Assembly: GCA_022340185.1 (NCBI GenBank)
Contig: JAJDOK010000073.1
Span: 45,049 to 109,048, forward strand
Direction of reading: 5' to 3'
Length of the DNA: 64,000 nucleotides
DNA from: Salaquimonas sp.
Lineage (GTDB): Bacteria; Pseudomonadota; Alphaproteobacteria; Rhizobiales; Rhizobiaceae
Positions 13,454 to 29,415 of the stretch are shown here, piece by piece (positions within the stretch are counted from its first letter, which is position 1; each line of letters starts with the position of its first letter). Below the pieces are notes generated by a model. It was not told where the DNA came from. It saw nothing but the letters and a program-made list of their open reading frames with translations, and made no database searches. The translations under genes and the position numbers were made by a program.

Positions 13454-14173
13454 TCAGGCCCGGCCGGCGCGCGCAAACGCCGCCATGTGGAACTGTACCT
13501 GCGTGTCGGGATAGCGATGGTCGCGCCCGACCGGACAGGCATCGCGCGCCCGGCAGCCCGCGTTCATGCAGTCGGGCTGCGTCACCGAACCATCACGCGA
13601 AGCAGATGAATCAAGATAGGAACGGCACCCCGCCGCATCGAAGCCATCGGGTGAAAAAGCATCAACCGGACAAGTGCTTAGGCATGGTTTCTCGACGCAT
13701 TCATCGCAGGGATGAATCGTCACGCGAGCTTGTTGAATCGCAATCTCAACATCAAAGACCAGCGCGCCACGATAAGCGTGCCACAACCCGAATTCGGGAT
13801 GGATCAGCATGCCGAGCGGCGATGGCTTCAGCCCCTCACCCCGTTTCGCCCATTGCTGGAACGGCAGATACGGCTTCTGCCACGGAAACACGGCCTTCGC
13901 GCCGAAGCGTTCCGCAATGCCGCCGATCACCTCCGCCGACCAGGCATCGAGCGGATTGGCCGGCCTTGCCGCCTGCTTCTCCAGCCAGGCTGAAAAATGC
14001 GGCCAGATCGCCCCGCCGGCATGGCCGGTCAGGATGAGGCTCACCGCAGGCCTGCCATTCGGACCTTCCGGCCGCGCTTCGTCTGGCGTGAAATGGAAGC
14101 CGCCGCGCGTGATAAGGCCATGGCGTGCCAGCGCCTGTGACAGGTCCCCGGGGGTCCCTGCCGTCATTCTCAT
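13454..14173 (-). CDS. QueG/RdhA-C-terminal-like Fe-S (ferredoxin-type) protein
   Basis: 239 aa with Cys motifs CDECVEKPCLSTCP and CMNAGCRARDACP. It lies 92 nt downstream of the MttB-family gene on the same strand. Confidence 0.6.
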   Translation of the reverse strand: MRMTAGTPGDLSQALARHGLITRGGFHFTPDEARPEGPNGRPAVSLILTGHAGGAIWPHFSAWLEKQAARPANPLDAWSAEVIGGIAERFGAKAVFPWQKPYLPFQQWAKRGEGLKPSPLGMLIHPEFGLWHAYRGALVFDVEIAIQQARVTIHPCDECVEKPCLSTCPVDAFSPDGFDAAGCRSYLDSSASRDGSVTQPDCMNAGCRARDACPVGRDHRYPDTQVQFHMAAFARAGRA

Positions 14174-14265
14174 TCTCCCTTCAGGCTGCCGGCGCGGCGT
14201 ACGTCACCGTAGAACTGCTCATCAACAATGCCACGAGCCCCGGTTTCGTCCGCCCGCCCTTCCTT

Positions 14266-15867
14266 TCAGCCGAAGGCGTCGGGCATGGAATCCTTCTTCT
14301 CGCGCATGAAGGCCTGCAGTGCCTCGTCGATGCCTTCGTCGAGCGGCGGCGCCTCATATTGCTCAAGCCAGCGCCGTGCGGTTTCGCCGGCCCGGTCCTC
14401 GGCCCGTTTCGAACCTTCCAGTTCCCATTGTTCGAAGGAATTGTTGTCGGCCACGGCTGAGACATGGAACGCCGTCTGGAAGTTTTCGCGCGTATGCGTC
14501 GCGCCGAGATAATGGCTTCCCGGACCGACTTCGCGGATGGCGTCCATCGCCTGCGCGTTCTCGCTCATGTCGACGCCGGCGGCGAATTTCTGGTGCGCGG
14601 CAAGCTGGTCGGCATCCATGACCAGCTTCTCGTAGGAGGATACCAGCCCGCCCTCCAGCCAGCCGGCGGCGTGCAGCATAAAGTTGACGCCACCGAGCAT
14701 CGCCGGCCACAGCGTGTTGGCGCTTTCATAGGCCGCCTGCGCATCCGGCACCTTCGAGCCGGTCAGCGCCCCGCCCGAACGGAACGGCAGATTGTAGCGC
14801 CGGGCGAACTGCGCCGCGCCCATCAGCACCTGCGCCGGTTCCGGCGTGCCGAAGACGGGCGCACCAGACTGCATCGAGATCGCTGTGGCGAAAGTACCCA
14901 TGACCACCGGCGCGCCGGGCCGGCAAAGCTGCGAAAAGGCGATGGCGCTGGTCGCCTCGCACAGAACTTGGCTGAGCGTGCCGGCCACCGTCACCGGGCT
15001 CATCGCACCGCCGACGATGAAGGGCGAGATCACCGTCGCCTGGTTGGCGCGGGCATAGACCTTCAGCGCCCCAAGCATGGTCGCATCCATGACCAGCGGC
15101 GAATTGCAATTGATCAGACTGATGGTGACGCAATTCTTGTCGACGAATTCCTCGCCGAAGACGATTCCCGCCATTTTCACCGTGTCCTCGGCGCGTTCCG
15201 GCGCCGTGACCGATCCCATGAACGGCTTGTCGGAATAGCGGATATGCGAATAGACCATGTCGAGATGGCGCTTGTTGACCGGGATATCGACCGGTTCGCA
15301 CACCGTGCCGCCGGAATGGTGCAGCGCCGGCGCCATATAGGCGAGCTTCACCAGATTGCGGAAATCCTCGATCGCCGCATAACGCCGCTCGCCATCGATC
15401 CCGCGCACGAAAGGCGGCCCGTAGACCGGGGCGAACACCGTGTGCGGCCCGCCGATCTCGACATTGCGCGCCGGATTGCGCGCATGCTGGGTGAAGGTCG
15501 AGGGCGCCGTCTTCATCAGTTCGCGGCATAGCCCCTTCGGGAAGCGCACTCGCTCGCCCTTCACGTCGGCACCTGCATCCTTCCACAGTTTCAGCGCTTC
15601 GGGGTCCTCGCGGTATTCGACGCCGACCTCCTCCATCAGCGTGTCGGCATTCGCCTCGATGACCTCGATCGCCTCCAACGACAATATGTCGGTCGGCGGC
15701 AGGTTGCGCGTCACGAAAGGTAGGCTGACCGGCCGCTGGCCGGTACGCGCCTGGCGCCGCGCTGCGGCACCACCACCGGCTCCCCTGCCGCGCCTTCCCG
15801 TCGATGCCGCGATCTCCATCGGCGGGCTTTCTCCATCCTGGCTTTCGGAAACGTCACTCTGGCTCAT
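14266..15867 (-). CDS. trimethylamine methyltransferase (MttB) superfamily protein, non-pyrrolysine type
   Basis: A roughly 533-aa uninterrupted ORF with family-typical length and sequence. ATG 15867 has GAGGGTGAGGAAA just upstream. The N-terminus carries an RG-rich segment. Confidence 0.9.
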   Translation of the reverse strand: MSQSDVSESQDGESPPMEIAASTGRRGRGAGGGAAARRQARTGQRPVSLPFVTRNLPPTDILSLEAIEVIEANADTLMEEVGVEYREDPEALKLWKDAGADVKGERVRFPKGLCRELMKTAPSTFTQHARNPARNVEIGGPHTVFAPVYGPPFVRGIDGERRYAAIEDFRNLVKLAYMAPALHHSGGTVCEPVDIPVNKRHLDMVYSHIRYSDKPFMGSVTAPERAEDTVKMAGIVFGEEFVDKNCVTISLINCNSPLVMDATMLGALKVYARANQATVISPFIVGGAMSPVTVAGTLSQVLCEATSAIAFSQLCRPGAPVVMGTFATAISMQSGAPVFGTPEPAQVLMGAAQFARRYNLPFRSGGALTGSKVPDAQAAYESANTLWPAMLGGVNFMLHAAGWLEGGLVSSYEKLVMDADQLAAHQKFAAGVDMSENAQAMDAIREVGPGSHYLGATHTRENFQTAFHVSAVADNNSFEQWELEGSKRAEDRAGETARRWLEQYEAPPLDEGIDEALQAFMREKKDSMPDAFG

Positions 15868-16146
15868 TTTCCTCACCCTCAAGGAACGATGCGTGCCGGG
15901 CGACATCCCTCCACCCGGCTTTCATGACTCGATAATCGCAAATGACTTGGTGCGCGGGATTTCCAAAACCGTCATGACGAGGTCGCAGCCGTCGCTTTCG
16001 TTTTCTGCAAAGTCGCTTAGAAGGCAGGCATGGTGCCGTTGGTTCTTGCACTATGCGAATCAGCGGGTAAACCTGTAGGTGTTAAGCGTTTTTGCGTTTC
16101 GGGCATCTTGAACGGCCGGGACGGCGGCAGGAAGGATTTGGGTACC

Positions 16147-16860
16147 ATGTCCGACGAAGAAGAAATCATCCTCTCCGAACTGAATGACGAGGAACTCGTG
16201 CTGCAGATGCACGACGACCTCTATGACGGGCTGAAGGAGGAAATCGAGGAAGGCACCAACATCCTGCTCGAACGCGGCTGGACGCCCTACGACGTGCTCA
16301 CCAAGGCGCTGGTCGAGGGCATGCGTATCGTCGGCATCGATTTCCGCGATGGTATCCTGTTCGTGCCCGAAGTGCTGCTGGCCGCCAATGCCATGAAGGC
16401 AGGCATGGCGATCCTGCGCCCGCTGCTCGTCGAAACAGGTGCGCCGAAACTCGGTTCCATGGTCATCGGTACGGTCAAGGGCGACATCCACGACATCGGC
16501 AAGAACCTCGTTGGCATGATGATGGAAGGCGCCGGCTTCGACGTCATCGATCTCGGCATCAACACCGATGTTGACAAGTACCTGGCCGCGCTCGAGGAGC
16601 ACAAGCCCGACATTCTCGGCATGTCGGCGCTGCTGACCACCACCATGCCCTACATGAAGGTTGTCATCGACACCCTGATCGCCCAGGGCAAGCGTGACGA
16701 CTATATCGTGCTGGTCGGCGGCGCACCGCTCAACGAGGAATTCGGCAAGGCCGTTGGCGCCGATGCCTATTGCCGCGACGCGGCCGTTGCCGTCGAGACC
16801 GCCAAGAACCTGATCGCCAGGAAGCACAACCAGCTTGGCGCCCGCGCAACGACGGCCTGA
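16147..16860 (+). CDS. cobalamin-binding corrinoid protein (MtbC/MtgC-like)
   Basis: B12-binding DxHxxG motif (GDIHDIGKN), a helical cap domain, and a very acidic N-terminus. ATG 16147 is in frame within track ORF 16030. Confidence 0.9.
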   Translation: MSDEEEIILSELNDEELVLQMHDDLYDGLKEEIEEGTNILLERGWTPYDVLTKALVEGMRIVGIDFRDGILFVPEVLLAANAMKAGMAILRPLLVETGAPKLGSMVIGTVKGDIHDIGKNLVGMMMEGAGFDVIDLGINTDVDKYLAALEEHKPDILGMSALLTTTMPYMKVVIDTLIAQGKRDDYIVLVGGAPLNEEFGKAVGADAYCRDAAVAVETAKNLIARKHNQLGARATTA

Positions 16861-16965
16861 CCGGTTCGCCTGACCGGTTCTCGCCGAACTTGACCGATAT
16901 GCGGCGCGGCACATGACAAAATGCATTCGCCGACATGTCCCGGGCGGCGGAAATGGAGGCATGGC

Positions 16966-17625
16966 ATGGCTCAGCGTCGATTGCTCGACATATCGCTCGC
17001 CGCGACGCTGACCGCGCTGGTGCTGCTTGTCGCGGCCGTCATGGCGGCGGCGACCGCCAGCCCTCCCGCCAGTCAGGAACTGTTCGAGACGATATCGGCA
17101 CCGGCTGACTATGCTGCCCGGCTGGTCGCAACCGACGCCGGATTGCGCGTCGTCCTGTTCATCGACGGCCTGTTCATGCTGGCCTATACCACGGCAATAG
17201 GCTTCGCTGCCCTCGCCTTTCGCGACAACAACCGCCCGGCGGCATGGCTCGCCGGGTGTGGCATCGTTGTAGTCATGATCCTTGATGCGCTGGAAAACAC
17301 CACCATGGCCGGCTCGCTCGACATTGCGGGCCTGACCGGCGCCTTGACGCTCGAGCGCATCGCCACACAAGCATCGATTTCCGCCATGAAATGGCAGATC
17401 GCCGCCGCAACTCTGGTGGCCACGAGCTTCGTCCTGCCTTCGGCCACGCTGCTCGAGAAGCTGCTGGTGTGGGGTGTACGGCTCGGCCTGCCCGTTGCGG
17501 TACCGCTTTTCGTCTACGATCCCTTCGGATTGCGGGCGGTTGGCGGCATCCTGCTGCTCGTCTCGATGGCCGGCGGCTTCGTCCTGCTCGCCATCGTGCT
17601 GCGCGGACGAATGAGACAAGCCTGA
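16966..17625 (+). CDS. hypothetical integral membrane protein
   Basis: Several hydrophobic helices. GGAGG lies 6 nt upstream of ATG 16966. Its stop overlaps the next start (TGATG at 17623-17627). Confidence 0.55.
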   Translation: MAQRRLLDISLAATLTALVLLVAAVMAAATASPPASQELFETISAPADYAARLVATDAGLRVVLFIDGLFMLAYTTAIGFAALAFRDNNRPAAWLAGCGIVVVMILDALENTTMAGSLDIAGLTGALTLERIATQASISAMKWQIAAATLVATSFVLPSATLLEKLLVWGVRLGLPVAVPLFVYDPFGLRAVGGILLLVSMAGGFVLLAIVLRGRMRQA

Positions 17626-18248
17626 TGCCGACTGTTGCGACCAGCGCCCCCGCCGGCAAGCCCGAGCGCACGCGCATCATCGCCTGCGGCGCCATCGCGC
17701 GCGAGACCATCGCGGTGCTGGCGCAATCCGGCATGAGCCATGTCGACCTGACCTGCCTGCCGGCCAAGCTGCATCTTTATCCCGAAAAGATACCGGGCGA
17801 GATCGAACGCGAGATCCTCGAAGCCCGCGCGGAAGGCATCGAGCGTATTTTCGTCGGCTATGCCGATTGCGGCACCGGCGGCCTGCTCGATGCCGTCTGC
17901 GAAAAGTACGGTGTCGAACGCATCGCCGGCCCGCACTGCTATTCCTTCTTCCTCGGCAATGCCGAATTCGAGGCGTTGGGCGACGCCACCATGACCTCGT
18001 TCTTCCTGACCGATTTCCTTGCCCGCCAGTTCGACGCCTTCGTCACAAGACCGCTCGGCCTCGACCGCCACCCCGAATTGCGCGACGCCTATTTCGGCAA
18101 TTACGAAAAGCTCGTCTTCCTCGCCCAGACCGACGACGACGAACTCGACGCCAGGGCCCGCGCGGCGGCTGATTTCCTCGGCCTCGCCTATGAACGCGTC
18201 AGAACAAGCTACGGCGATTTGACGGCCGCGATCGGCGCGCTCAAATAG
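17625..18248 (+). CDS. DUF1638 domain protein
   Basis: IIACGAIARE and VGYADCGTGG motifs. It is translationally coupled to the upstream membrane protein. Confidence 0.8.
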   Translation: MPTVATSAPAGKPERTRIIACGAIARETIAVLAQSGMSHVDLTCLPAKLHLYPEKIPGEIEREILEARAEGIERIFVGYADCGTGGLLDAVCEKYGVERIAGPHCYSFFLGNAEFEALGDATMTSFFLTDFLARQFDAFVTRPLGLDRHPELRDAYFGNYEKLVFLAQTDDDELDARARAAADFLGLAYERVRTSYGDLTAAIGALK

Positions 18249-18252
18249 GACC

Positions 18253-18945
18253 ATGAAAACCATCACCACCATCGGCTTCGATGCCGACGACACGCTCTGG
18301 CACAACGAGGTCCATTTCCGCCTGACCGAGGACCGCTTCGGCGAACTGCTTGCCGATTTTGCCGGGAAAGACCACCTGAACGAACGGCTGCTCGAGGCCG
18401 AGCGGCGCAATGTCGGCCACTATGGCTACGGCATAAAGGGCTTCACCCTGTCGATGATCGAGACGGCGATCGAGGTGACGGGTGGCAAGGCGCCTGCTTC
18501 CGTCTTCAGCGAAATCCTCGCCGCCGGCCGCGACCTGCTGCGCCACCCTGTCGAGACCTTTCCGGGCGTCGCCGAGACATTGCAGGCGCTCAAATCCGAC
18601 TACCGGCTGGTCATGATAACCAAGGGCGATCTGTTCGACCAGGAAAGGAAGCTCGCAGCCTCCGGCATCGATCATCTCTTCGACGCCGTCGAGATCGTCT
18701 CCGACAAGAACACCGACACCTATGCGCGGATCTTTTCGCGGTATGGCGACGGCGCGGACCACGCTATGATGGTCGGCAATTCGCTTCGATCGGATATCAT
18801 CCCCGCGCTGGAAGCCGGCGCCTGGGCGACTTACATCCCGCACGAACTGACCTGGGCGCTCGAACACGCAGAGGAACCGGTCGGACAGCAGCGGTTCTGC
18901 AAGGTCGAAAGGATTGACGAACTGACTGGCCTGCTCGGTTCGTGA
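18253..18945 (+). CDS. HAD superfamily hydrolase
   Basis: Motif I GFDADDTLW plus ITKGD and VGNSLRSD motifs. It starts 4 nt after the DUF1638 stop. Confidence 0.85.
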   Translation: MKTITTIGFDADDTLWHNEVHFRLTEDRFGELLADFAGKDHLNERLLEAERRNVGHYGYGIKGFTLSMIETAIEVTGGKAPASVFSEILAAGRDLLRHPVETFPGVAETLQALKSDYRLVMITKGDLFDQERKLAASGIDHLFDAVEIVSDKNTDTYARIFSRYGDGADHAMMVGNSLRSDIIPALEAGAWATYIPHELTWALEHAEEPVGQQRFCKVERIDELTGLLGS

Positions 18946-18989
18946 TATCGCATCACGGCGCTGCCGGCAGGGTTGGAACCGCTCGTGGC

Positions 18990-19775
18990 CTATTCCGCCT
19001 TGCCGTCTGCGCCTTCCGCGGCCATCAGCGCCTGCAGCGTGCATCCGTGCTTGGCCAGCCTGGCGACCCTGTCGAAATTGCTGCCTTCGAGCACGCCGGC
19101 AGGCAGGCGTTGAACAGCGATTTCGTGGACATCGCGTTTGGTGGCAAGTGTAAGCTTCACTTTCTCGTTCTCGCCGATGCCCAGACCGGTAAACCGCAAC
19201 GCGATCGCGCCCGGCTTCAAATCCTCCTCCAGCGTCCTTCCGCCCACTTCCACCCTGATTCGGTCGAGGAAGCGTGAATCGATGCGGCGCACGAACAGCG
19301 AATCGGAAAACAGGCAGAAGGTTCCACCCTCCGCCAGCTTCGGCAGGAATTCGATAAAGAGTGGCAGGCGCGCGCCCGGTTCGGCCTCATCGACCTGACC
19401 TCTCTTGTCATTGGGGATGGCCCGGCCCGCCGCCGTCGTCTCCGAAAGCCCGGCAACGCCGAACATGCGCGCCAGCAATCCCTCGTCATTTTCCTGGTCA
19501 GCCGGAACACGGAAGCCCGCCAGCCCGTCATGGCTGGCCTCCACGGCTGCCCGGCCCTCGACAATATAACTCGTACCGTCCTCGCCGAGCAGCGCCACCT
19601 TCACACCGGAAGGAACGAAGACGAATTCCGGAGACCCACCCTCGGAACCATAGACAGCACCCGCCACAAGGTCCGGCACGGCGGGTTCGACATGGATGAC
19701 GACGAACTCCTCGGCGTGTGCGGCCGTTAACGTCCAAAACAACGCAATTGTTGCAAGAAAACTTCGCCAAAGCAT
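18990..19775 (-). CDS. hypothetical secreted protein
   Basis: Signal peptide MLWRSFLATIALFWTLTAAHA. Codon usage looks coding-like. It lies downstream of the patatin gene on the same strand. Confidence 0.6.
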   Translation of the reverse strand: MLWRSFLATIALFWTLTAAHAEEFVVIHVEPAVPDLVAGAVYGSEGGSPEFVFVPSGVKVALLGEDGTSYIVEGRAAVEASHDGLAGFRVPADQENDEGLLARMFGVAGLSETTAAGRAIPNDKRGQVDEAEPGARLPLFIEFLPKLAEGGTFCLFSDSLFVRRIDSRFLDRIRVEVGGRTLEEDLKPGAIALRFTGLGIGENEKVKLTLATKRDVHEIAVQRLPAGVLEGSNFDRVARLAKHGCTLQALMAAEGADGKAE

Positions 19776-19836
19776 CGATATCGTCTCCTGCCGCCCCCGG
19801 AGAAAATGAAACCTGGGATCGGGCGTCGCCGCGATC

Positions 19837-20979
19837 CTATCGTGCCGCCACCTTTTCGTAGCGGTTGACGTGCGGCGGCTCCTTCAGCCAATGCTTCACG
19901 CCGTTGATCCCCGCCGCATATCCTGCCTCGAAAAGCTTGTTCATCCGCGCCGCGTCGAAATTGAGACTCTCCTGCGCCATCGGAATGGAATCGGGGATCG
20001 CGGTCAGGTGGAAGTGGGCGCCGACATTTCTCGCCAGCACGAAATCACGATAGATCGTATCGGTCTGGATCTCGCGCATCATCTCCGTGATCGACTTCTT
20101 GGCGATATCGGACAGCGTGGCCTTGACCGGCACGGCGGCATTCTCGCGCACCGTATTGCCGTTGATGATCATGTAGAGTTCTTTTTTGACCTTTTTTCCC
20201 GGCGGAAACATGAACCCTGAAACCAGCACCGGTTCCTTCACGCCGCCGTCGACATGGGCCTGGCGCAACTGGATACCGCGCTGCGGCTTGATGTAGACCG
20301 GCTCGAAATAGGCCGGCACCGCCGCCGAGGCGCGCAGCACCTTCTGGAAATGCAGGCGATCGTTGGTACGTCCGCCATTGGCGATCTCGCCCATGTCCCA
20401 GATCACCAGTTCGCCGGCGTCGAGATTGGTCGTCGCTATGTAGAGCCGGCGCCCCTTGGCGTATTCGGCCGCGATCTTCTTCAGGATGTCGTCGGTGATG
20501 AATTCCTCGATCTGGTTCTTCAGTGGGCCGTTGTCGTAGAGCGAATCGCCGAACAGTCCGTCCAGACCGCGCTTGCGGAAAATCTTGTCATTGCTTTGCG
20601 TGGTGTAGAAGCGCTGCAGTTCATCGTCGTATTCGGGACCGAGAAAGGCCAGCACCGCCATCAGCGCGCCGGTGGAAACACCCGTCACGACATCGAATTT
20701 CGGCCGCGTACCACTCTTGGTCCAGCCAACCAGCACGCCAGCGCCATAGGCGCCGTCCGCCCCGCCCGCCGACAGGGCCAGAACGGAGAAGACCCCGTCA
20801 TCGTCGCGCTTGGCGTCTGCCGTCAGAATCGGGTCGGGACGGGCATTCGGATCGACGGCCTCCATTGGCAGCAGCGTGCGCGTAGCAACCGCTTCCTGCG
20901 GACGCTCAGCGCAAGCGCTCACGATTGCCAATAGAACCATGGCCGTCAAAAGGCGGACGACCATTGCCGAGCTACCCAT
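19837..20979 (-). CDS. patatin-like phospholipase, probable lipoprotein
   Basis: GGADGAYGAG oxyanion loop, GVSTGAL (GxSxG) and HVDGGV (catalytic Asp). A lipobox-like LAIVSAC sits near the N-terminus. Confidence 0.85.
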   Translation of the reverse strand: MGSSAMVVRLLTAMVLLAIVSACAERPQEAVATRTLLPMEAVDPNARPDPILTADAKRDDDGVFSVLALSAGGADGAYGAGVLVGWTKSGTRPKFDVVTGVSTGALMAVLAFLGPEYDDELQRFYTTQSNDKIFRKRGLDGLFGDSLYDNGPLKNQIEEFITDDILKKIAAEYAKGRRLYIATTNLDAGELVIWDMGEIANGGRTNDRLHFQKVLRASAAVPAYFEPVYIKPQRGIQLRQAHVDGGVKEPVLVSGFMFPPGKKVKKELYMIINGNTVRENAAVPVKATLSDIAKKSITEMMREIQTDTIYRDFVLARNVGAHFHLTAIPDSIPMAQESLNFDAARMNKLFEAGYAAGINGVKHWLKEPPHVNRYEKVAAR

Positions 20980-21240
20980 AACCTCTCCTGCCTCGGTCTA
21001 TTCTTGTTCAGGAGACATTATCGCCGCTCCCGTTTGACAGTCACCCTACACGAAAATCATTAATAACCGAAGACTGGCGTTTGACGACTTTAACCTTTGG
21101 TTAACCATGATCGTCCGCGCGATTGCCGCAGCTTGTTTGCTCGCGACAACAGCGCGATCGTCAACGTAACGGCCAACGTAATGGATTGACTCGGGCGGCC
21201 CGATCGGCTTGCTTGCCGCCGTCCTTCCCAAGAGGTTCGC

Positions 21241-21732: not shown

Positions 21733-22205
21733 AGCAACCGCCCTTCTGCACCCCGGGTGAACGCAATGACCTCGGCGGCCACACCTTCACGGCCGAAGAG
21801 ATCATCCGCTTTGCGAAAAAATACGACCCGCAGCCCTTCCATATCGATGAGGCGGCGGCGCGCGCCAGCGTATTGGGCGGCTTGTGCGCGTCGGGCTGGC
21901 ACACGGCGGCGGTCTGGATGCGCAAGTTCCGCGATTTCAGCGAAGCCGCCTACGCCGAATGGCTGGCCGAGGGCAATCCGCCATACGAGATGGGCCCCTC
22001 GCCCGGCTTCAAGAACATGCGCTGGATCAGGCCGGTCTATGCCGGCGACACGATTTCCTTCGCCAACATCACGCATTCCTGGCGCGCGAGCGCTTCCAGA
22101 CCGGGCTGGTTCGTCTATACTGGCATTCAGGAAGGCGTGAACCAGAAGGGTGAGCCGGTCTTCTCCTTTGAAAGTGCCGGCTTCATGCGCTATCCCGCAG
22201 AATAG
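21729..22205 (+). CDS. MaoC family (hot-dog fold) dehydratase, second subunit
   Basis: 158 aa with FAKKYDPQPFHI. An ATGA overlap joins it to the upstream paralogue. Confidence 0.85.
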   Translation: MKQPPFCTPGERNDLGGHTFTAEEIIRFAKKYDPQPFHIDEAAARASVLGGLCASGWHTAAVWMRKFRDFSEAAYAEWLAEGNPPYEMGPSPGFKNMRWIRPVYAGDTISFANITHSWRASASRPGWFVYTGIQEGVNQKGEPVFSFESAGFMRYPAE

Positions 22206-22254
22206 CATTGAATTTGCCGCTCCCAGGCAAGCGAGGTTGATAACGAGTTCCACC

Positions 22255-23025
22255 ATGACAAGACCCGTGATCGGCGTGATCGGGAACGCCTATGTAGTGG
22301 AGAACCGCTTCACCACCCAGATGGCTGGCCAGAACAATCTGCGCGCCGTCACCGAGGTTGCCGATGCGCTGCCGCTGATCTTCGCCGGCGATCCTGAATT
22401 CACGAACATCCCGGACCTGCTTTCCGTCGTTGACGGCGTACTGCTCACCGGCGCGCGGGCCAATGTCCATCCGAGCCGCTTCGCCACCGAGCCCAACCCC
22501 AAGCACGAACCCTATGACGAGGCGCGCGACGCGCTCGCCCTGCCGCTGATCGAGGCGTGCGTGGCGCAGGGCGTACCCGTTTTCGGTGTCTGCCGCGGTT
22601 TTCAGGAGATGAATGTCGCCTTCGGCGGCTCGCTGCATCCCGAAATCCGCGAACTGCCTGGGCGTATGAACCACCGCATGCCGCGCCTGGAGAATGGCGA
22701 AATCCACCCTGACCCGCAGGTCGTCTTCGCCGACCGCCACGAGGTTCGTCTGACGCCCGGCGGCACCTTCGCCGGCATTTTCGGCCGCGACTCGATCCGG
22801 GTGAACTCGCTGCATGGCCAGGGCATTCTCGAACCGGGCCCACGGGTAGTCACCGAAGGCATCGCCGAGGACGGCACCGTCGAGGCGATCCGTATCGAGG
22901 ACGCGCCGAGCTTTGCGCTCGGTGTGCAATGGCACGCCGAATACGACCCGCAGACCAATCCGGTCAATCGCGCATTGTTCGAGGTGTTTGGCGAAGCTGT
23001 CAGGGCGCACCACGCGGCGGCATAA
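22255..23025 (+). CDS. gamma-glutamyl-gamma-aminobutyrate hydrolase family (class I GATase, peptidase C26)
   Basis: GVCRGFQEMNV Cys nucleophile and VQWHAE His. ATG 22255 is in frame within track ORF 22150. Confidence 0.85.
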   Translation: MTRPVIGVIGNAYVVENRFTTQMAGQNNLRAVTEVADALPLIFAGDPEFTNIPDLLSVVDGVLLTGARANVHPSRFATEPNPKHEPYDEARDALALPLIEACVAQGVPVFGVCRGFQEMNVAFGGSLHPEIRELPGRMNHRMPRLENGEIHPDPQVVFADRHEVRLTPGGTFAGIFGRDSIRVNSLHGQGILEPGPRVVTEGIAEDGTVEAIRIEDAPSFALGVQWHAEYDPQTNPVNRALFEVFGEAVRAHHAAA

Positions 23026-23031
23026 GGCAGG

Positions 23032-23415
23032 TCAGGCGTAACCCTTGTAGGTGAGGAAGGCGCCGATCAACGCCCAGACCACCCCGCCGACGCGGATGAC
23101 ACCGGGCTTGTCCAGCATCGCATTGCCGATGGTGACGACCGCTGTGGGCGATACCATGCGGACAACGCCGCCAATAACCATCGCCCAGCCGACAAGGGTG
23201 ATGATGACAGGCCAGTCCGCAATCCAGCGGTTATGCGTGTTGACGATGGCGAGGCCGGTGACCAATGCAATCACGCCTGTAACAAAGATCAGCGCCCTGC
23301 TCTTCAGGAATTCCTCTGCAAGGGCGTGAATCGCCTTTGGCGAAGCCAGCATCGCAACGGCAGCCACCAGCATCACCGGCCCGAGCAGCTTGGCAATCCA
23401 GATCGACATCGCCAT
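23032..23415 (-). CDS. small hypothetical membrane protein
   Basis: 127 aa, about 4 TM helices. AGGAGG lies upstream of ATG 23415. The longer track ORF (to 23637) has an implausible N-terminus. Confidence 0.55.
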   Translation of the reverse strand: MAMSIWIAKLLGPVMLVAAVAMLASPKAIHALAEEFLKSRALIFVTGVIALVTGLAIVNTHNRWIADWPVIITLVGWAMVIGGVVRMVSPTAVVTIGNAMLDKPGVIRVGGVVWALIGAFLTYKGYA

Positions 23416-23636: not shown

Positions 23637-23954
23637 ATGGCCCAGCTAACCATCGTCTACTGGCGTGACATTCCCGCCCAGGTGATCGTCAAGTCCGGTC
23701 GCAAATCGGCCAAGCGCGAACTGCCGCAACGCTTCGCCGAAGCAATCGACATGTGCGCCATGCGCGTCGGCGCGTCCGACACCGACGCCTATCTGGCCGA
23801 ATGGCGGCGCGGCGAACCCCTCGAAGTCTCCGACGACCTGGAAGCAGAGGCCGACAAGGCCATGGCCGAACTCGACGCCCGGTTCCCCAGGGACGAACTC
23901 GTCGCGCTGGTCGAGACGCAAGGCCGCCTGAAGCCACCAAAGACCGGGGAGTGA
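23637..23954 (+). CDS. small conserved protein of unknown function (resembles the so-called virulence-factor domain family found next to MetF-like genes)
   Basis: 105 aa starting MAQLTIVYWRDIPAQVIVK. It is the first gene of a tightly packed operon. The family call is from memory, not a search. Confidence 0.55.
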   Translation: MAQLTIVYWRDIPAQVIVKSGRKSAKRELPQRFAEAIDMCAMRVGASDTDAYLAEWRRGEPLEVSDDLEAEADKAMAELDARFPRDELVALVETQGRLKPPKTGE

Positions 23955-23959
23955 CGGCG

Positions 23960-24550
23960 ATGAGCCAGGACAAGCCGGTCGTCACACAGGCCACCAGGGT
24001 TGCGCAGGCCAAGCCGAAGACGGCTTACAAGCCCTCGCATGTCTCGCCCGCGCGCCGCCAGCAGAAGAGCTACACGATCCGCCTGTGGTCGGTGCGCCAT
24101 TCGCGCTTTCTCGAATGGCTGTACGACCGCTTCGCCAATCTCTTTTTGGTTTTGCATCCATTCTGGAAGGCGGTCGGCTATCAGCGCGCCGAAGCGCCGG
24201 TCAAGTTTGTCGAGCGCCGCGTCAAGGGTCTGCTCTTCGACTGCCGCATGTGCGGCCAGTGCATCCTGTCGTCGACCGGCATGAGCTGCCCGATGAACTG
24301 CCCCAAGCAATTGCGCAACGGCCCGTGCGGCGGCGTACGTGCCAACGGCCATTGCGAGGTCGAGCCGGACATGCCCTGCGTCTGGGTGCAGGCCTGGGGC
24401 GGCGCAAACAACATGCGCCATGGCGCCAACAGCATCATGACCGTGCAGAAGCCGGTCGACCAGTCACTGCGCGAGACCTCGGCCTGGCTGCGCGTCACCG
24501 CCTTGAAAGCCGCGGAGACGGAAAAGCCGGTGCAAGGAGCGGTGTCATGA
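23960..24550 (+). CDS. methylenetetrahydrofolate reductase C-terminal (MetV-like, Cys-rich) domain protein
   Basis: Cys-rich CRMCGQCILSSTGMSCPMNCPKQLRNGPCGG. ATG 23960 lies 5 nt after the upstream stop. Confidence 0.8.
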   Translation: MSQDKPVVTQATRVAQAKPKTAYKPSHVSPARRQQKSYTIRLWSVRHSRFLEWLYDRFANLFLVLHPFWKAVGYQRAEAPVKFVERRVKGLLFDCRMCGQCILSSTGMSCPMNCPKQLRNGPCGGVRANGHCEVEPDMPCVWVQAWGGANNMRHGANSIMTVQKPVDQSLRETSAWLRVTALKAAETEKPVQGAVS

Positions 24551-25662
24551 GCCCGCCTTCCGCAGACCGTGATGACCCGCATCCGCAAGGCGTCGACCGC
24601 CCGCTTGATCCCCAACCCGGCCATTCCTCGCGCGGCCGGCTGGAGCGCGTGCTGCGGCGCGGCGAGTTCGCGGTGACCGCAGAACTCAATCCGCCCGACA
24701 GCGCCAATCCGCAGGACGTCTACGAACGCGCCGCTTTCTTCGAAGGCTGGGTCGACGGCATCAACGCGGTCGATGCTTCCGGCGCCAATTGCCACATGTC
24801 GTCCGTCGGCATCTGCGCGTTGCTGACCCGCATGGGCTATGCACCGATCATGCAGATCGCATGCCGCGACAAGAACCGCATCGCCATCCAGGGCGACGTG
24901 CTGGGTGCCGCCGCCATGGGTGTTTCCAACATCATGTGCCTGACCGGCGACGGTGTGCAGTGCGGCGACCAGCCGGGCGCCAGGCCCGTATTCGATTTCG
25001 ACTGCATGAGCTTGCTCGAAACGGTGCGCACCATGCGTGACGAATCGAAATTCCTGTCGGGCCGCAAGCTGACCAGCCCGCCGGAAGTCTTTCTCGGCGC
25101 GGCGATCAATCCCTTCGTCCCCCCGCACGATTTCCGGCCGCTCAGGCTGAAGAAGAAGATTCAAGCCGGCGCGCAATTCGTCCAGAGCCAGTATTGCTAC
25201 GACGTGCCGCTGTTCCGGAGTTACATGGAGCGCGTGCGCGACATGGGCCTCGACAAGCAGGTCTTCATCCTGTGCGGTGTCGGCCCGCTTGCCTCTGCCC
25301 GCACCGCGCGTTGGATGCGCTCCAACGTGCCGGGCGTCCACATTCCCGACGCGGTGATCGATCGCCTCGAAGGTGCCGAGAACCAGAAGGAGGAAGGCCG
25401 CAAGCTCTGCGTCGACATCATCAACGAGGTGAAAGAGATCGAAGGCGTCTCCGGCATCCACATGATGGCCTACCGCCAGGAAGAACTGGTCGCCGAGATC
25501 GTCGCCGAATCGGGCATCCTCAAGGGCCGCAAGCCCTGGCGCCGCGAACCCGCCCGCGACGAGGCGGTGGTCGCCGAGCGCATGGATGAAATGGCCCAGG
25601 CCGAATCGGCAGCATCCACACCGGAAACGCCGCACGAGATCGTTTCGGAGGCGACGGATTGA
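24547..25662 (+). CDS. methylenetetrahydrofolate reductase (MetF-like)
   Basis: A roughly 371-aa TIM-barrel MTHFR-like sequence (VTAELNPPDS...CRDKNRIAIQGD...LTGD). An ATGA overlap joins it to the MetV-like gene. The track start at 24085 is rejected. Confidence 0.85.
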   Translation: MSPPSADRDDPHPQGVDRPLDPQPGHSSRGRLERVLRRGEFAVTAELNPPDSANPQDVYERAAFFEGWVDGINAVDASGANCHMSSVGICALLTRMGYAPIMQIACRDKNRIAIQGDVLGAAAMGVSNIMCLTGDGVQCGDQPGARPVFDFDCMSLLETVRTMRDESKFLSGRKLTSPPEVFLGAAINPFVPPHDFRPLRLKKKIQAGAQFVQSQYCYDVPLFRSYMERVRDMGLDKQVFILCGVGPLASARTARWMRSNVPGVHIPDAVIDRLEGAENQKEEGRKLCVDIINEVKEIEGVSGIHMMAYRQEELVAEIVAESGILKGRKPWRREPARDEAVVAERMDEMAQAESAASTPETPHEIVSEATD

Positions 25663-25740
25663 GCCGACAGATTACCCGAAATACAGGATCGAACTTGAAG
25701 CTGCAGACATAACGATATAAAGAACTCTTTATGTCACAGA

Positions 25741-25784
25741 GCAAATCCAGGAAAAGTGGAAATCGGTTTTCCGTCCGGATTTGC
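25741..25784 (+). repeat. 44-nt hairpin repeat, copy C (GCAAATCCAGGAAAAGTGGAAATCGGTTTTCCGTCCGGATTTGC)
   Basis: The outer stem carries a compensatory double change (GCAAATCC/GGATTTGC) relative to copies A and B. Confidence 0.7.
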
Positions 25785-25876
25785 GAAAAACACGGAACGG
25801 GCGCGTTTCATTGCAACATCAAACGATGAAACGCACCTTCGAAACCAGCCTCTAACCCTTTGGAGCAACGCCCAAA

Positions 25877-26863
25877 ATGACCCACACCATCGTCGCCTCC
25901 GAAAAACGCGAAGTCGTCATCGGCTTTGACAAGCCGTTCTGCGTGATCGGCGAACGCATCAACCCGACCGGCCGCAAGAAGCTCGCCGCCGAAATGATCG
26001 GGGGCAATTTCGAGACGGTGGAGAAGGATGCGCTGGAACAGGTCGCAGCCGGCGCGGCCGTACTCGACGTCAATGCCGGCGTCACCGCCGTCAACCCGAA
26101 CGAGACCGAGCCGCCGCTGCTGGTCAAGACCATCGAGATCGTGCAGGGCCTTGTCGACGTGCCGATCTCCATCGATTCTTCCGTCACCGCCGCGATCGAG
26201 GCGGGCCTGAAGGTCGCCAAGGGCCGCCCGCTGGTCAATTCCGTCACCGGCGAACTTGAAAAGCTCGAGACGATCCTGCCGCTGATCAAGAAATACGACG
26301 TGCCCGTCGTCGCCATCTCCAACGACGAGACCGGCATCTCGATGGACCCAGACGTGCGCTTCGCCGTCGCAAAGAAGATCGTCGAACACGCCGCCGATTA
26401 CGGCATCAAGCCGCACGACATCATCGTCGACCCGCTGGTCATGCCGATCGGAGCGCTGGGTGACGCCGGCCGGCAGGTCTTCGCGCTGGTGCGCCGCCTG
26501 CGCGAGGAATTGAAGGTCAACACGACCTGCGGCCTGTCCAACATCTCCTTCGGCCTGCCGCACCGCCACGGCATCAACGCCGCCTTCATTCCGATGGTCA
26601 TCGCTTCGGGCATGACGTCGGCGATCATGAACCCCTGCCGCCCGCAGGAGATGGAAGCGGTGCACGGCGCCAATGTGCTGAACGGCACCGACGAGAATTG
26701 CGCCACCTGGATTATGAAATACCGCGACCATGTCGCACCCCAGGGCACCATGCCCTCAACGCTCGGCGGCGCATCGCACCCGAAGATCCAGCCCGGCTCC
26801 AATCCGGCCACGCGTTCCGGCCGCCGCGGCGGCAGGGCCGCCAGAGTGGGTTCGGGGGGTTAA
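25877..26863 (+). CDS. methyltetrahydrofolate:corrinoid methyltransferase (pterin-binding domain, MeTr/AcsE/MtrH-like)
   Basis: 328 aa with a pterin-binding barrel pattern (GERINPTGRKK, LDVNAG, NSV, SNISFGLP). RG-rich C-terminal tail. Confidence 0.85.
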   Translation: MTHTIVASEKREVVIGFDKPFCVIGERINPTGRKKLAAEMIGGNFETVEKDALEQVAAGAAVLDVNAGVTAVNPNETEPPLLVKTIEIVQGLVDVPISIDSSVTAAIEAGLKVAKGRPLVNSVTGELEKLETILPLIKKYDVPVVAISNDETGISMDPDVRFAVAKKIVEHAADYGIKPHDIIVDPLVMPIGALGDAGRQVFALVRRLREELKVNTTCGLSNISFGLPHRHGINAAFIPMVIASGMTSAIMNPCRPQEMEAVHGANVLNGTDENCATWIMKYRDHVAPQGTMPSTLGGASHPKIQPGSNPATRSGRRGGRAARVGSGG

Positions 26864-26873
26864 AGGAGCTAAT

Positions 26874-27377
26874 TTGCCCTTCGATCCAAGTCAGCACCAC
26901 CTGAACTCTTCCTTGAGGGAGAACATCATTGAGCATCTCTTCATTGGAGAGATGCTTAAGTTGTTGTGGCGGAGGGGGGTAACCGATTGCGAGATTCTCA
27001 AGTCAGAATTTGATGGCTACGGCTACGACCTCGTGGTTAGCGTCGGCAAACTGACGCGGCACCTCCAAATGAAGTCGGGCAACAAGAATCCGACTCGAGT
27101 TTCCGTCAATTTGTCACTTGCGGCCAAACAGAGTGGTTGCGTGCTGTTCGTGGTCGTCAACGACGATCTGGAATTCGTTCGCTTCTTTTGGCTTGGCGAT
27201 GAACCCGGAGCACCACTTCCGGACATCAAGAGTAAATCTATCGCCAAGCGTACTACTCGAAACAAGCAGGGAGATAGGCCCGAAAGGGAAAATCATCGCG
27301 AATTGAAAAGAATTGATTTCACTGAACTTTCCTCATTTGAAGAAGTCGTAGACGAACTGGTTGGCCTACATGCCTGA
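26874..27377 (+). CDS. hypothetical PD-(D/E)xK (restriction-endonuclease-like fold) protein, low-GC insertion
   Basis: The TTG at 26874 is in frame with track ORF 26730, 6 nt after AAGGAG (26862-26867). Motif string: E..IEHLF...EFDGYGYDLVV...RHLQMKS. Lower GC than its neighbours. Confidence 0.5.
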   Translation: MPFDPSQHHLNSSLRENIIEHLFIGEMLKLLWRRGVTDCEILKSEFDGYGYDLVVSVGKLTRHLQMKSGNKNPTRVSVNLSLAAKQSGCVLFVVVNDDLEFVRFFWLGDEPGAPLPDIKSKSIAKRTTRNKQGDRPERENHRELKRIDFTELSSFEEVVDELVGLHA

Positions 27378-29415
27378 CTCCAACCCCCTCGTCCTGTTCA
27401 TGCCGTCAGGCAGGCGCGGGCATTTTCCTAAGGGCACGCCGGTGCTCGACGCCGCGCGCCAGCTCGGCGTCTATGTCGAGAGCGTATGCGGCGGGCGCGG
27501 CATTTGCGGGCGCTGCCAGATCGAGGTGCAGGAAGGCCAGTTCGCCAAGCACAAGATCACCTCTTCGAACGACCACATCTCCGCGCCTGGCCCGAAGGAA
27601 TTGCGCTATGCCGAAAAGCGTGAATTGAAGCCCGGCCGGCGCTTGTCATGCTCGGCGACGATCCAGGGCGATCTCGTCATCGACGTGCCGCAGGACACCG
27701 TCGTTAACGCCCAGATCGTGCGGAAGGCCGCCACCACGCGGCTGATCGAGCGCAACGCCGCCGTGCGCCTTTGTTACGTCGAGGTCGACGAACCCGACAT
27801 GCACAAACCGCTCGGCGATCTCGACCGCATCAAGGCCGCGCTGAAGCGCGAATGGGGCTACGAGACTCTGGAGGTCGATTTCCGCCTGCTGCCACGCGTC
27901 CAGAAGATCCTGCGCGACGGCGAATGGGCCGTCACCGCCGCCATCCACCACGACCGCGAAACCGGCACGCCGCACATCATCGATCTGTGGCCCGGGCTGC
28001 ACAACGCGGCCTGGGGCATCGCCTGCGACATCGGCTCGACCACCATTGCCATGCACCTGGTCTCGCTGCTGTCGGGCCGCGTCGTCGCTTCATCGGGCAC
28101 GCCCAACCCGCAGATCCGCTTTGGCGAAGACCTGATGAGCCGCGTCTCCTACGTGATGATGAACCCGGACGGCGCGGAAAAGATGACCGCCGCCGTGCGC
28201 GAAGCGATCAACGAGCTGATCGGCAAGGTCTGCGGCGAGGTCAATGTCCACGAGAGCGACATTCTCGACCTCGTCTTTGTCGGCAATCCGGTGATGCACC
28301 ACCTCTTCCTCGGCATCGACCCGACGGAACTGGGCGGCGCGCCCTTCGCGCTGGCCGTCTCCGGCGCCGTGCATCTAAACGCCGCCGAACTGGATCTGCG
28401 GGCCAATGCTGGCGCGCGTGTCTATGTCCTGCCCTGCATCGCCGGCCATGTCGGCGCCGATTCGGCCGCCGCCACCCTGTCGGAAGGCCCCTACCGCCAG
28501 GACGAGATGATGCTGCTCGTCGATGTCGGCACCAATGCCGAGATCGTGCTGGGCAACAGGGAACGCGTCGTCGCCTGTTCCTCGCCCACCGGCCCGGCCT
28601 TCGAGGGCGCAGAGATTTCCGGCGGCCAGCGCGCCGCGCCGGGCGCCATCGAGCGCGTAAGGATCGACCCGGAAACACTCGAACCGCGCTACCGCGTGAT
28701 CGGCTCGGAACTCTGGTCGGACGGGCCGGGTTTCGACGAAGCCACAAAGGAAGTCGGCGTCACCGGTATCTGCGGTTCCGGCATCATCGAGGTGATCGCC
28801 GAGATGTTCCTGGCCGGCATCATCTCCGTCGACGGGGTCATCGACGGTTCATTGGCCGAAAAAAGCCCGCGCATCGTCGCGTCGGGCCGCACCTTCTCCT
28901 ATGTGCTGAAGCATGGCGAACCCGCCATCACCATTACCCAGAACGACGTGCGCGCCATCCAGCTTGCCAAGGCCGCGCTTTATGCCGGCGTCAAACTGCT
29001 GATGGCCAAGCAGGAGGTCGACCATGTCGACCTGATCCGCCTCGCCGGCGCCTTCGGCTCCTATATCGATCCGAAATACGCCATGGTGCTGGGCCTCATC
29101 CCCGATTGCGATTTGGATAAGGTCAAGGCCGTCGGCAACGCCGCCGGCGACGGTGCGCTCATGGCATTGCTCAACCGCGGCTATCGTCGCGAGATCGAGG
29201 AGACGGTCAGGACGATCCACAAGGTGGAAACCGCGCTGGAACCCGATTTCCAGCGCCTGTTCGTCGACGCCATGGCCTTCCCCAACAAGACCGATCCCTT
29301 CCCGAAATTGTCGGCGGCAGTCAAACTGCCTGAACCGAAAGCGCTGGTCGGCGCAGGCAACGGCGAAAACCGCGGCGCCGACAATGGCAGACGGCGCAGA
29401 AGGCGTCCGCGCTAG
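27370..29415 (+). CDS. corrinoid reductive activase (RACE/RamA-like; N-terminal 2Fe-2S ferredoxin plus ASKHA ATPase domain)
   Basis: CGGRGICGRCQ plant-type 2Fe-2S motif. The large ASKHA/DUF4445-like body begins DIGSTTIAMH. ATG 27370 (track TTG 27361) overlaps the upstream ORF by 8 nt. Confidence 0.85.
   Translation: MPDSNPLVLFMPSGRRGHFPKGTPVLDAARQLGVYVESVCGGRGICGRCQIEVQEGQFAKHKITSSNDHISAPGPKELRYAEKRELKPGRRLSCSATIQGDLVIDVPQDTVVNAQIVRKAATTRLIERNAAVRLCYVEVDEPDMHKPLGDLDRIKAALKREWGYETLEVDFRLLPRVQKILRDGEWAVTAAIHHDRETGTPHIIDLWPGLHNAAWGIACDIGSTTIAMHLVSLLSGRVVASSGTPNPQIRFGEDLMSRVSYVMMNPDGAEKMTAAVREAINELIGKVCGEVNVHESDILDLVFVGNPVMHHLFLGIDPTELGGAPFALAVSGAVHLNAAELDLRANAGARVYVLPCIAGHVGADSAAATLSEGPYRQDEMMLLVDVGTNAEIVLGNRERVVACSSPTGPAFEGAEISGGQRAAPGAIERVRIDPETLEPRYRVIGSELWSDGPGFDEATKEVGVTGICGSGIIEVIAEMFLAGIISVDGVIDGSLAEKSPRIVASGRTFSYVLKHGEPAITITQNDVRAIQLAKAALYAGVKLLMAKQEVDHVDLIRLAGAFGSYIDPKYAMVLGLIPDCDLDKVKAVGNAAGDGALMALLNRGYRREIEETVRTIHKVETALEPDFQRLFVDAMAFPNKTDPFPKLSAAVKLPEPKALVGAGNGENRGADNGRRRRRRPR

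Follow-up and report, generated by a model that had tools for sequence, protein, structure and literature searches.

Gene content of the locus

A 64,000-nt stretch of the genome of Salaquimonas sp. (contig JAJDOK010000073.1, positions 45,049 to 109,048), referred to here as the window, carries two blocks of genes whose products resemble the parts of a cobalamin-dependent methyl-transfer chain, among them an MttB-superfamily methyltransferase (MtgB) and a corrinoid protein (MtgC). An earlier note, made from the sequence alone, had described the blocks as one methyl-transfer island. Since the GC content is 60–65% throughout the window, open reading frames (ORFs) were selected by codon-position GC together with domain content, and gene identities were obtained from Pfam and NCBIfam profile scans of the window proteins; in this way, every gene listed earlier was found, at the same coordinates or a few bases off. 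The genes of the two blocks, and those lying beside and between them, are as follows (positions in the window; aa, amino acids; THF, tetrahydrofolate).

10778–11818, forward strand: mtgE ('bmt'), homocysteine-binding methyltransferase module of a split methionine synthase (Pfam S-methyl_trans, 227 bits)
13454–14173, reverse strand: CblC/QueG-like iron-sulphur (Fe-S) protein of the 2x[4Fe-4S] type, 239 aa, downstream of mtgB
14266–15867, reverse strand: mtgB, non-pyrrolysine MttB-superfamily substrate:corrinoid methyltransferase (Pfam MTTB, 740 bits)
15868–16146, no strand: divergent mtgB/mtgC intergenic region, 279 nt between the start codons, with presumed promoters and operators
16147–16860, forward strand: mtgC, corrinoid (cobalamin-binding) protein (Pfam B12-binding_2 and B12-binding)
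16921–17625, forward strand: hydrophobic (membrane) 234-aa ORF between mtgC and the DUF1638 gene (third-codon-position GC of 0.77, coding-type)
17625–18248, forward strand: DUF1638 protein (Pfam DUF1638, 102 bits)
18253–18945, forward strand: HAD hydrolase (Pfam Hydrolase/HAD_2)
18990–23415, no strand: unrelated genes between the blocks, namely a patatin, two MaoC-like dehydratases, a peptidase C26 and a small membrane ORF (Pfam)
23637–23954, forward strand: small Virulence_fact (PF13769) protein, first gene of block 2 (Pfam, 91.6 bits)
23951–24550, forward strand: MetV-like Cys-rich protein (MTHFR_C, PF12225; Pfam DUF5981/MTHFR_C, 90.5 bits)
24547–25662, forward strand: MetF2-type methylene-THF reductase (Pfam MTHFR, PF02219, 117 bits)
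25877–26863, forward strand: mtgD, pterin-binding methyl-THF:corrinoid methyltransferase (Pfam Pterin_bind; NCBIfam PRK07535)
26874–27377, forward strand: low-GC 167-aa ORF between mtgD and ramA, TTG start
27361–29415, forward strand: ramA, predicted ATP-dependent reductive activase of the RACo/RamA/AcsV type (Fer2, RACo_linker, Raco_middle and RACo_C_ter)

Two starts are candidates for mtgE (GTG at 10778, or 10787 as placed earlier), the true start of mtgC is the ATG at 16147, and the stop codon of the membrane ORF overlaps the start of the DUF1638 gene. The MetV-like gene may begin at GTG 23951, which overlaps the stop of the upstream Virulence_fact gene, or at ATG 23960, and the ATG of metF2 overlaps the MetV stop codon; the description of block 2 as a tightly overlapping operon thus holds for these three genes and fails for mtgD, which has a 214-nt gap upstream.

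The MTTB profile (PF06253) matched the window MttB protein at full length (positions 3–500 of 500, 740 bits). Its gene is one uninterrupted ORF of 533 codons with no internal stop codon, and the protein scored 270 bits against the pyrrolysine-type model TIGR02369 (cut-off 525) and so falls outside that type, in agreement with the earlier observation that no in-frame TAG is present. MtgC joins a PF02607 cap to PF02310 and carries DIHDIG (DxHxxG) at residues 113–118, the features by which a corrinoid protein is recognised; it is 85% identical to the Sinorhizobium meliloti protein and 80% identical to that of Paracoccus. Its score lies below the cut-offs of the anaerobe MtgC models (199 versus 370), in keeping with the separate clade described in PMC12478193. 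MtgE scored 535 bits against the NCBIfam model for betaine--homocysteine S-methyltransferase (cut-off 338) and is 68% identical to S. meliloti Bmt, and MtgD scored 392 bits against NCBIfam PRK07535 (cut-off 259) with 89% identity to its S. meliloti counterpart.

On the folate side, PF02219 and PF12225 lie in translationally overlapping genes, as in a MetVF-type reductase whose reaction direction is a prediction; MetF2, which is 80% identical to the S. meliloti protein, is predicted to oxidise methyl-THF, and the MetV-like protein contains eight Cys residues and is 71% identical to its S. meliloti homologue. All four Pfam domains of RACo/RamA proteins are present in RamA together with a [2Fe-2S]-type set of Cys residues (43, 49, 52 and 97), which assigns it to that family; identity to the S. 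meliloti protein is 76%, and the NCBIfam AcsV model gave 409 bits, below its cut-off. Five Cys (C21, C44, C82, C92 and C105) and three His (H39, H50 and H104) are invariant in the DUF1638 protein, for which a Foldseek search of the Protein Data Bank (PDB) with the AlphaFold2 model (predicted local distance difference test score, pLDDT, 89) returned only generic alpha/beta matches with template-modelling (TM) scores of at most 0.33 and gave no functional lead. In all, MtgB, MtgC, MtgD, MtgE, RamA, DUF1638 and MetF2, the components of the MtgBCDE system, were each recognised by domain content.

Putative operator elements in the intergenic region from which mtgB and mtgC diverge are a short palindrome (TCATGACG) and two inverted repeats, both imperfect. 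A promoter and terminator consensus scan gave sites no more frequent than in shuffled sequence, and the Rfam scan of the whole window at gathering scores gave no cobalamin or S-adenosylmethionine riboswitch.

Conserved core and lineage-specific passengers

To place the locus among its relatives, the MttB protein was compared with one genome per GTDB species, which gave at least 588 relatives, the closest (85% identity) in a metagenome-assembled genome of Nitratireductor, which places the host near that genus among the Hyphomicrobiales. The 80 best of these and two loci from a plasmid collection made up a set of 82 loci, which was searched by tblastn with the window proteins; many of the core-gene absences in this set stem from short contigs or from the limit of 10 kb on the flanks. 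MtgC was detected at 71 of the 82 loci, the Fe-S protein at 67, where it adjoins mttB, DUF1638 at 64, Virulence_fact at 62, MtgD at 61, RamA at 54, Bmt/MtgE at 53 (no more than 10 kb from mttB), MetF2 at 45 and MetV at 44. The gene set recurs in about 80 Hyphomicrobiales genomes, and its co-occurrence across the 82 loci goes beyond chance neighbourhood. The core is clear and consists of MtgB, MtgC, MtgD, MtgE, RamA, DUF1638, an MTHFR, the Virulence_fact protein and the CblC/QueG-like Fe-S protein.

The membrane ORF, the HAD hydrolase, the patatin and the low-GC ORF are lineage-specific passengers. Homologues of the patatin were found at six loci, the nearest ones, those of the HAD hydrolase at two, both nearest relatives, and those of the membrane ORF, the peptidase C26 and the low-GC ORF at one locus each (L010 for the membrane ORF; L031, at the same position, for the low-GC ORF). 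Because of these counts, the HAD hydrolase and the membrane ORF, which had earlier been taken as members of the island, were rejected as parts of the system; the membrane ORF also lacks any Pfam, NCBIfam or PADLOC match. The low-GC ORF, absent from the earlier gene list, is a foreign passenger: the 497-nt stretch between mtgD and ramA, in the segment 26864–27377, has a GC content of 49% compared with 64–65% in its flanks, and the ORF starts at TTG 26874 behind AAAGGAG, a good ribosome-binding site, overlaps the start of ramA and has no Pfam or PADLOC match. A different hypothetical gene, of 112 aa, stands between mtgD and ramA in S. meliloti.

Gene order was compared with two annotated clusters. 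Nine window proteins are collinear, at 49–89% identity, with those of CP090106.1, an S. meliloti chromosome record that is mislabelled in PLSDB; there, bmt is followed by ferredoxin–MttB, the diverging B12 protein–DUF1638 and then the Virulence_fact block, annotated as 'virulence factor'–MTHFR_C–MTHFR–methyl-THF:cobalamin methyltransferase–hypothetical–ASKHA protein. On plasmid IV of Paracoccus aminovorans, eight genes are contiguous, hypothetical–MttB and then B12–DUF1638–MTHFR_C–MTHFR–MtgD–RamA, preceded upstream by a GlxA regulator; both in Paracoccus and in Azoarcus the cluster is flanked by regulators of the GlxA type. The patatin, MaoC-like and C26 genes that separate the blocks in the window are not found at this position in S. 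meliloti or Paracoccus, in which the two blocks are nearer each other or contiguous.

The Virulence_fact gene is part of the conserved cluster and lies directly upstream of an MTHFR-type gene in each of the neighbourhoods inspected (the window, S. meliloti L001 and L020), preceding both the MetV–MetF pair and a stand-alone MTHFR variant. The latter occurs at locus L020, which is devoid of MetV and MetF2 and has, between Virulence_fact and mtgD, a stand-alone protein of 298 aa (6887–7783, reverse strand); this protein is only distantly MTHFR-like, its sole similarity being 27% identity to the window MetF2 (E=0.055). Judged from this single locus, there may be two MTHFR solutions for one pathway.

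A CblC/QueG-like iron–sulphur protein

The 239-aa Fe-S protein encoded downstream of mtgB matched no Pfam or PADLOC profile. It had been called QueG-like, a label that is appropriate for its fold and does not extend to QueG proper, as the match to the QueG model TIGR00276 covers residues 121–188 only (E=1.6e-5; 24 bits versus a cut-off of 200) and the protein is short beside QueG chains of about 370–440 aa. When its AlphaFold2 model (pLDDT 85; predicted TM score 0.83) was searched against the PDB with Foldseek, the top 32 matches were all MMACHC/CblC, QueG or RdhA, which share a cobalamin-binding, nitroreductase-like fold, with E-values of 1e-4 to 5e-2 (3e-4 for QueG) and modest TM scores of 0.34–0.52; the values for the MMACHC structures 3SBY and 3SOM were E=1e-4 and TM scores of 0.42–0.47.

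Like MMACHC (CblC), the Fe-S protein has an HPxFGxWxAxRG motif, and its most conserved stretch, GMLIHPEFGLWHAYRG, aligns with GVCIHPRFGGWFAIRG of MMACHC; for the 59-aa segment that holds this stretch, MMACHC proteins were the only PDB matches, although weak when searched alone (E of about 0.45). A weak match to PF16690 (MMACHC) was given by one family member, P0143 (E=0.0027), and none by the window protein. Like QueG and RdhA, it carries two [4Fe-4S]-type Cys motifs C-terminal to the B12-type domain, formed by eight invariant Cys residues in two ferredoxin-type motifs (C156/159/164/168 and C183/202/207/213). It differs from QueG and RdhA in being much shorter, with neither HEAT nor substrate domain, and its cofactor binding is a prediction.

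The protein has at least 2508 homologues in a database clustered at 90% identity, and 1940 representative clusters at E≤1e-3 (378 at E≤1e-30) in a library clustered at 50% identity. Its genomic context provides three independent links to cobalamin: beside the neighbourhood of mtgB described here, a family gene directly follows ramA in Azoarcus sp. DN11, and on the megaplasmid of Methylibium petroleiphilum PM1 a cobO-cbiB-cobQ-cobT-cobS operon ends with a homologue of 34% identity. The family loci in these three contexts (mtgB, ramA and cob) are the following.

Window, 13454–14173
L083, 10001–10681
L087, 7890–8510

An N-terminal HTH_3 domain is present in some members, and a C-terminal GNAT domain in one; the one context examined for an HTH-fused homologue was a dapF-mtaB-ftsY housekeeping region, giving no B12 link for that sub-family. 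Elsewhere, the protein is annotated as 'ferredoxin' (LZK74_26790 in S. meliloti strain Ak57) or 'hypothetical'. The word 'ferredoxin' does not occur in PMC12478193, the protein is absent from PMC5764234 too, and a literature search for a bacterial CblC-like Fe-S family found no description.

From fold and context, we infer that the Fe-S protein would have a redox part in handling the cobalamin cofactor, by processing, reducing or loading it. A more specific proposal, which we put forward tentatively and regard as rather doubtful, is that it represents a new family of 'minimal class-III cobalamin proteins', composed of a CblC-like B12-binding domain and two [4Fe-4S] clusters, and acts as a processing or reducing chaperone for MtgC. 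Such a chaperone may strip cyanide or alkyl groups from cobalamin that is newly arrived or damaged, or reduce it, and hand it on to MtgC. If this were true, the protein would be a functional analogue of the human CblC that feeds methionine synthase, a bacterial counterpart in B12 trafficking, and it may help to explain how an oxygen-sensitive Co(I) relay is kept up in aerobes.

Methyl flux, substrate and relation to known systems

Two studies of aerobic Alphaproteobacteria provide the frame for interpreting the locus. By mutant fitness, Price et al. (2018) found in Phaeobacter inhibens a three-part B12-dependent methionine synthase made up of a homocysteine methyltransferase, a pterin-binding protein and a B12-binding protein, which also needs a RamA-like activase and DUF1638, a protein for which no mechanism was proposed; S. 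meliloti has the RamA-like activase and a DUF1638 protein despite possessing a complete MetH (PMC5764234). Mausz et al. (2025, PNAS) defined the MtgBCDE/RamA/DUF1638/MetF2 system in the aerobe Ruegeria pomeroyi DSS-3 by proteomics and knock-outs. On glycine betaine, choline and carnitine, MtgB1, MtgB2, MtgC, MtgD, MetF2, RamA, DUF1638 and cobalamin synthesis were induced, MetF2 being the protein most strongly induced by N-osmolytes, and the mtgC and mtgD knock-outs were methionine auxotrophs that did not use betaine even when methionine was supplied. The relay proposed there runs from MtgB through MtgC and MtgD to methyl-THF and MetF2, with MtgD feeding MtgE in reverse. S. meliloti was reported to co-localise MtgBCDE with both reactivation modules, and marine Hyphomicrobiales to have homologues of MetH, MtgE, MetF2 (~66%), MtgC (~80%) and MtgB1 (~61%; Dataset S2) (PMC12478193). 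A further literature search with the locus tags around the S. meliloti cluster gave nothing relevant.

Against this background, the region is, with high confidence, an MtgBCDE-type cobalamin-dependent methyl-transfer system of aerobic Alphaproteobacteria. Its gene content, domains and conservation were observed directly, and by analogy the window orthologue would behave as in Ruegeria and Phaeobacter, where the dual function and the need for MtgC, MtgD, MtgE, RamA and DUF1638 have been shown. The methyl donor of MtgB would be a carboxylated quaternary amine, with glycine betaine the likeliest candidate, and the acceptor Co(I) on MtgC; MtgD would then move the methyl group from methyl-Co(III)-MtgC to THF, and MetF2, paired with the MetV-like Cys-rich protein, would oxidise the resulting methyl-THF to methylene-THF, destined for C1 oxidation or assimilation. 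Running in reverse, MtgD, predicted to be bidirectional as in R. pomeroyi, would load MtgC from methyl-THF for the methylation of homocysteine by MtgE ('Bmt'), which is encoded about 2.4 kb beyond the Fe-S gene, and the same core would therefore double as a split methionine synthase. RamA and DUF1638 would re-reduce inactive Co(II) to Co(I) at the expense of ATP. The general mechanism suggested earlier, from a non-pyrrolysine MttB through a corrinoid protein and a pterin methyltransferase to methyl-THF with MetF-type and RamA-type proteins, is correct, as are the gene-by-gene reading and the aerobic Hyphomicrobiales (Rhizobiales) setting. The direction of flux, which the earlier note considered unreadable from the sequence, is answered by the literature as both directions (PMC12478193).

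Several points weigh against this assignment. For this locus and its MttB orthologue group, it is built on sequence comparison, and the orthology of the window MttB to R. pomeroyi MtgB1 or MtgB2 (SPO2108 and SPO2134) is indirect, as is that of MtgC to SPO2160, both drawing support from the Hyphomicrobiales homologues in Dataset S2. In the R. pomeroyi study, as far as the available part of the source extends, MtgB was neither knocked out nor assayed, and bacteria with the MtgBCDE system often carry several MttB paralogues with no substrates assigned (PMC12478193). About 4.5 kb of DNA with unrelated genes separates the two blocks, and a foreign ORF stands between mtgD and ramA; co-regulation is putative. 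Furthermore, specificity for glycine betaine is not readable from the sequence, since a key substrate-contacting residue of characterised MtgB, F356, has been replaced by Gly in this protein and in every one of the 82 orthologues.

This last point is best seen from the active site. In Desulfitobacterium hafniense MtgB, mutagenesis and a ligand-bound structure established Y97, R312, H348 and F356 as the glycine-betaine contacts, and the F356L exchange raised the Km from 0.88 to 734 mM, about 800-fold (PMC13080624). Three of the four (Y97, R312 and H348) are kept in the window MttB; four residues before the Gly at the F356 position stands a Trp, in the motif HAAGWLEGG, which is identical in the S. 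meliloti structure 4YYC of the PDB. All five positions (Y, R, H, Trp416 and Gly420) are invariant in the 82 orthologues. The MttB active site is thus betaine-like, as judged by alignment, and not identical to that of MtgB.

The genomic context was considered together with this site. Family scans confirmed all of the neighbours that had been cited as signs of aerobic betaine catabolism or of a rhizobial setting, namely the Bmt-like, dimethylglycine-dehydrogenase-like, Rieske oxygenase, GbdR-type regulator and lipid A genes. Besides the Bmt-like gene, they include the following.

37709–38680, forward strand: GbdR-like GlxA/AraC regulator, a candidate for betaine catabolism (NCBIfam GbdR, 358 bits, cut-off 480)
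43831–46407, reverse strand: dimethylglycine/sarcosine-dehydrogenase-like protein, predicted next demethylation step, outside the cluster (Pfam DAO, FAO_M, GCV_T and GCV_T_C)
58369–59553: Rieske ring-hydroxylating-type oxygenase (family scan)
1710–2642: lipid A acyltransferase (family scan)

Two GbdR-like regulators were found in the window (NCBIfam), and together with the dimethylglycine-dehydrogenase-like gene they form its betaine context; the MtgC-MtgD-RamA-Fe-S operon of Azoarcus extends further, through SHMT and serine dehydratase to soxBDAG (sarcosine oxidase). The Bmt-like gene, which had been regarded as a separate, aerobe-style neighbour, is better read as MtgE and hence as a component of the system, following the argument that S. 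meliloti Bmt is MtgE and not a stand-alone betaine–homocysteine methyltransferase (PMC12478193).

Some other features of the window were recorded in passing. The edge of the window holds an O-acetylhomoserine sulfhydrylase-type gene (62857–63963, reverse strand), of homocysteine synthesis; the homocysteine methyltransferase MtgE/Bmt is encoded within these same 64 kb. A GbdR-like regulator follows the Rieske oxygenase (58369–60611), for which another N-methylated compound is a possible substrate; identification of this oxygenase as GbcA was rejected (109 bits versus a cut-off of 670). The Rfam scan also placed a Cis52 small RNA (Ruegeria) at 55396–55579 on the forward strand (60.7 bits, E=6e-9, above the gathering score), antisense to an ABC-transporter permease gene (55151–56188, reverse strand), and a tRNA search of the window gave none.

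The betaine-like site and the genomic context make glycine betaine the most likely substrate; provided that the system is correctly assigned, we consider this identification probable, with appreciable room for doubt. The strongest alternative keeps the same machinery and changes the substrate: the Trp416/Gly420 group of MttB proteins would demethylate another carboxylated quaternary amine, such as proline betaine, carnitine, gamma-butyrobetaine or trigonelline, leaving glycine betaine to a different paralogue or route. The loss in this group of F356, a residue important in MtgB, fits such a view, as does the comparison with the paralogues MtcB, MtpB, MthB and MtyB, among which R312 is common to all and H348 is shared to a lesser degree, whereas the variation falls precisely on the aromatic pair. 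Identity to D. hafniense MtgB is only 42%, such bacteria hold multiple MttB paralogues, and the window also has a Rieske oxygenase with no substrate assigned, accompanied by a GbdR-like regulator. On the other side, the window MttB is the copy fixed beside mtgC in about 70 of the 82 genomes, near bmt, dimethylglycine-dehydrogenase-like or sox genes; Y97 and H348 are retained; a second cation-pi partner could be the Trp, which precedes the F356 position by one helical turn; and the second, Bmt-independent route of glycine-betaine demethylation in S. meliloti has been assigned to this cluster (PMC12478193). On balance, a different substrate appears unlikely, while deserving serious consideration.

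A second alternative holds that the core (MtgC, MtgD, MtgE, RamA and DUF1638) serves here only as a split methionine synthase, with MttB and MetV/MetF2 as neighbours that share no flux with it. It is the split MetH function that is backed by direct fitness evidence (PMC5764234), and Hyphomicrobiales usually have MetH too, which leaves the role of the cluster there less constrained; on the other side, an organism containing MetH has no need of a second methionine synthase alone. This alternative is hard to reconcile with the divergent pairing of mttB and mtgC in about 70 of the 82 genomes, with the linkage of MetF2 and MetV to mtgD, or with Ruegeria, where MtgB, MetF2 and MtgC/D show joint induction on betaine and methionine fails to restore betaine growth to the mutants of mtgC and mtgD (PMC12478193), and we regard it as improbable. 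The reading of the protein as a genuine trimethylamine methyltransferase (MttB proper) that passes methyl groups from trimethylamine to THF draws on the Pfam family name only and is effectively refuted by the absence of an in-frame UAG, the sub-cut-off score against the pyrrolysine-type equivalog model, the lack of pyl genes seen in the window, and a PDB comparison that gave 133 bits to Methanosarcina barkeri MttB versus 386 to D. hafniense MtgB (2QNE and 9YCE) and 818 to 4YYC (itself labelled a 'putative trimethylamine methyltransferase').

The MtgBCDE assignment does not make the locus novel. The earlier note had itself reasoned that the island would be real and not new if clusters of related rhizobia already had a defined substrate and pathway, and the orthologous S. 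meliloti cluster and its pathway are indeed published (PMC5764234; PMC12478193), so the novelty that it implied is unsupported; the locus is a further example of a known system, not a new pathway. As a pathway it adds little beyond one more Hyphomicrobiales case linking betaine demethylation, methionine synthesis and B12 demand in aerobes. Its use is comparative, in that conservation of the set in about 80 genomes tells core parts and passengers apart and brings out the Virulence_fact and Fe-S proteins, which are conserved and yet lie outside the discussion of the published model.

Among known systems, glycine betaine:THF methyl transfer by MtgB, MtgC and MtgA of D. hafniense involves the chemistry predicted for the window and the same TIM-barrel MttB-family fold; in contrast to the window, its host is an anaerobe, its MtgB has F356 in place of Gly, and its system comes without a linked homocysteine methyltransferase module. 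That an aerobe can run a corrinoid-to-THF relay with its own MetF2 was already known from the chloromethane (cmu) pathway of Methylobacterium (PMC4197683): as proposed for the window, CmuA, CmuB and MetF2 of M. extorquens CM4 convey methyl groups through a corrinoid protein to THF, and a dedicated MetF paralogue oxidises methyl-THF. The two relays differ in the methyl donor and in the first methyltransferase, a CmuA fusion in one and an MttB-family protein with MtgC in the other, and the described cmu set has no RamA, DUF1638 or MtgE.

The methionine synthase of P. inhibens resembles the window in its separate homocysteine, pterin and B12 modules and in having RamA-like and DUF1638 proteins in place of the MetH reactivation domain, whereas that study addressed only methionine synthesis and proposed neither an MttB partner nor a branch for methyl-THF oxidation. 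Closest are the systems of R. pomeroyi and S. meliloti, with the same components, domain architectures, aerobic alphaproteobacterial setting and proposed dual role. The genes of R. pomeroyi are scattered, whereas those of the window form two blocks and those of Paracoccus one, and the window differs from R. pomeroyi also in its lineage-specific inserts (the membrane ORF, HAD, patatin/MaoC/C26 genes and low-GC ORF). PMC12478193 does not discuss three genes that are conserved here, those for the MetV-like partner, the Virulence_fact protein and the CblC/QueG-like Fe-S protein, and the gene order is that of S. meliloti.

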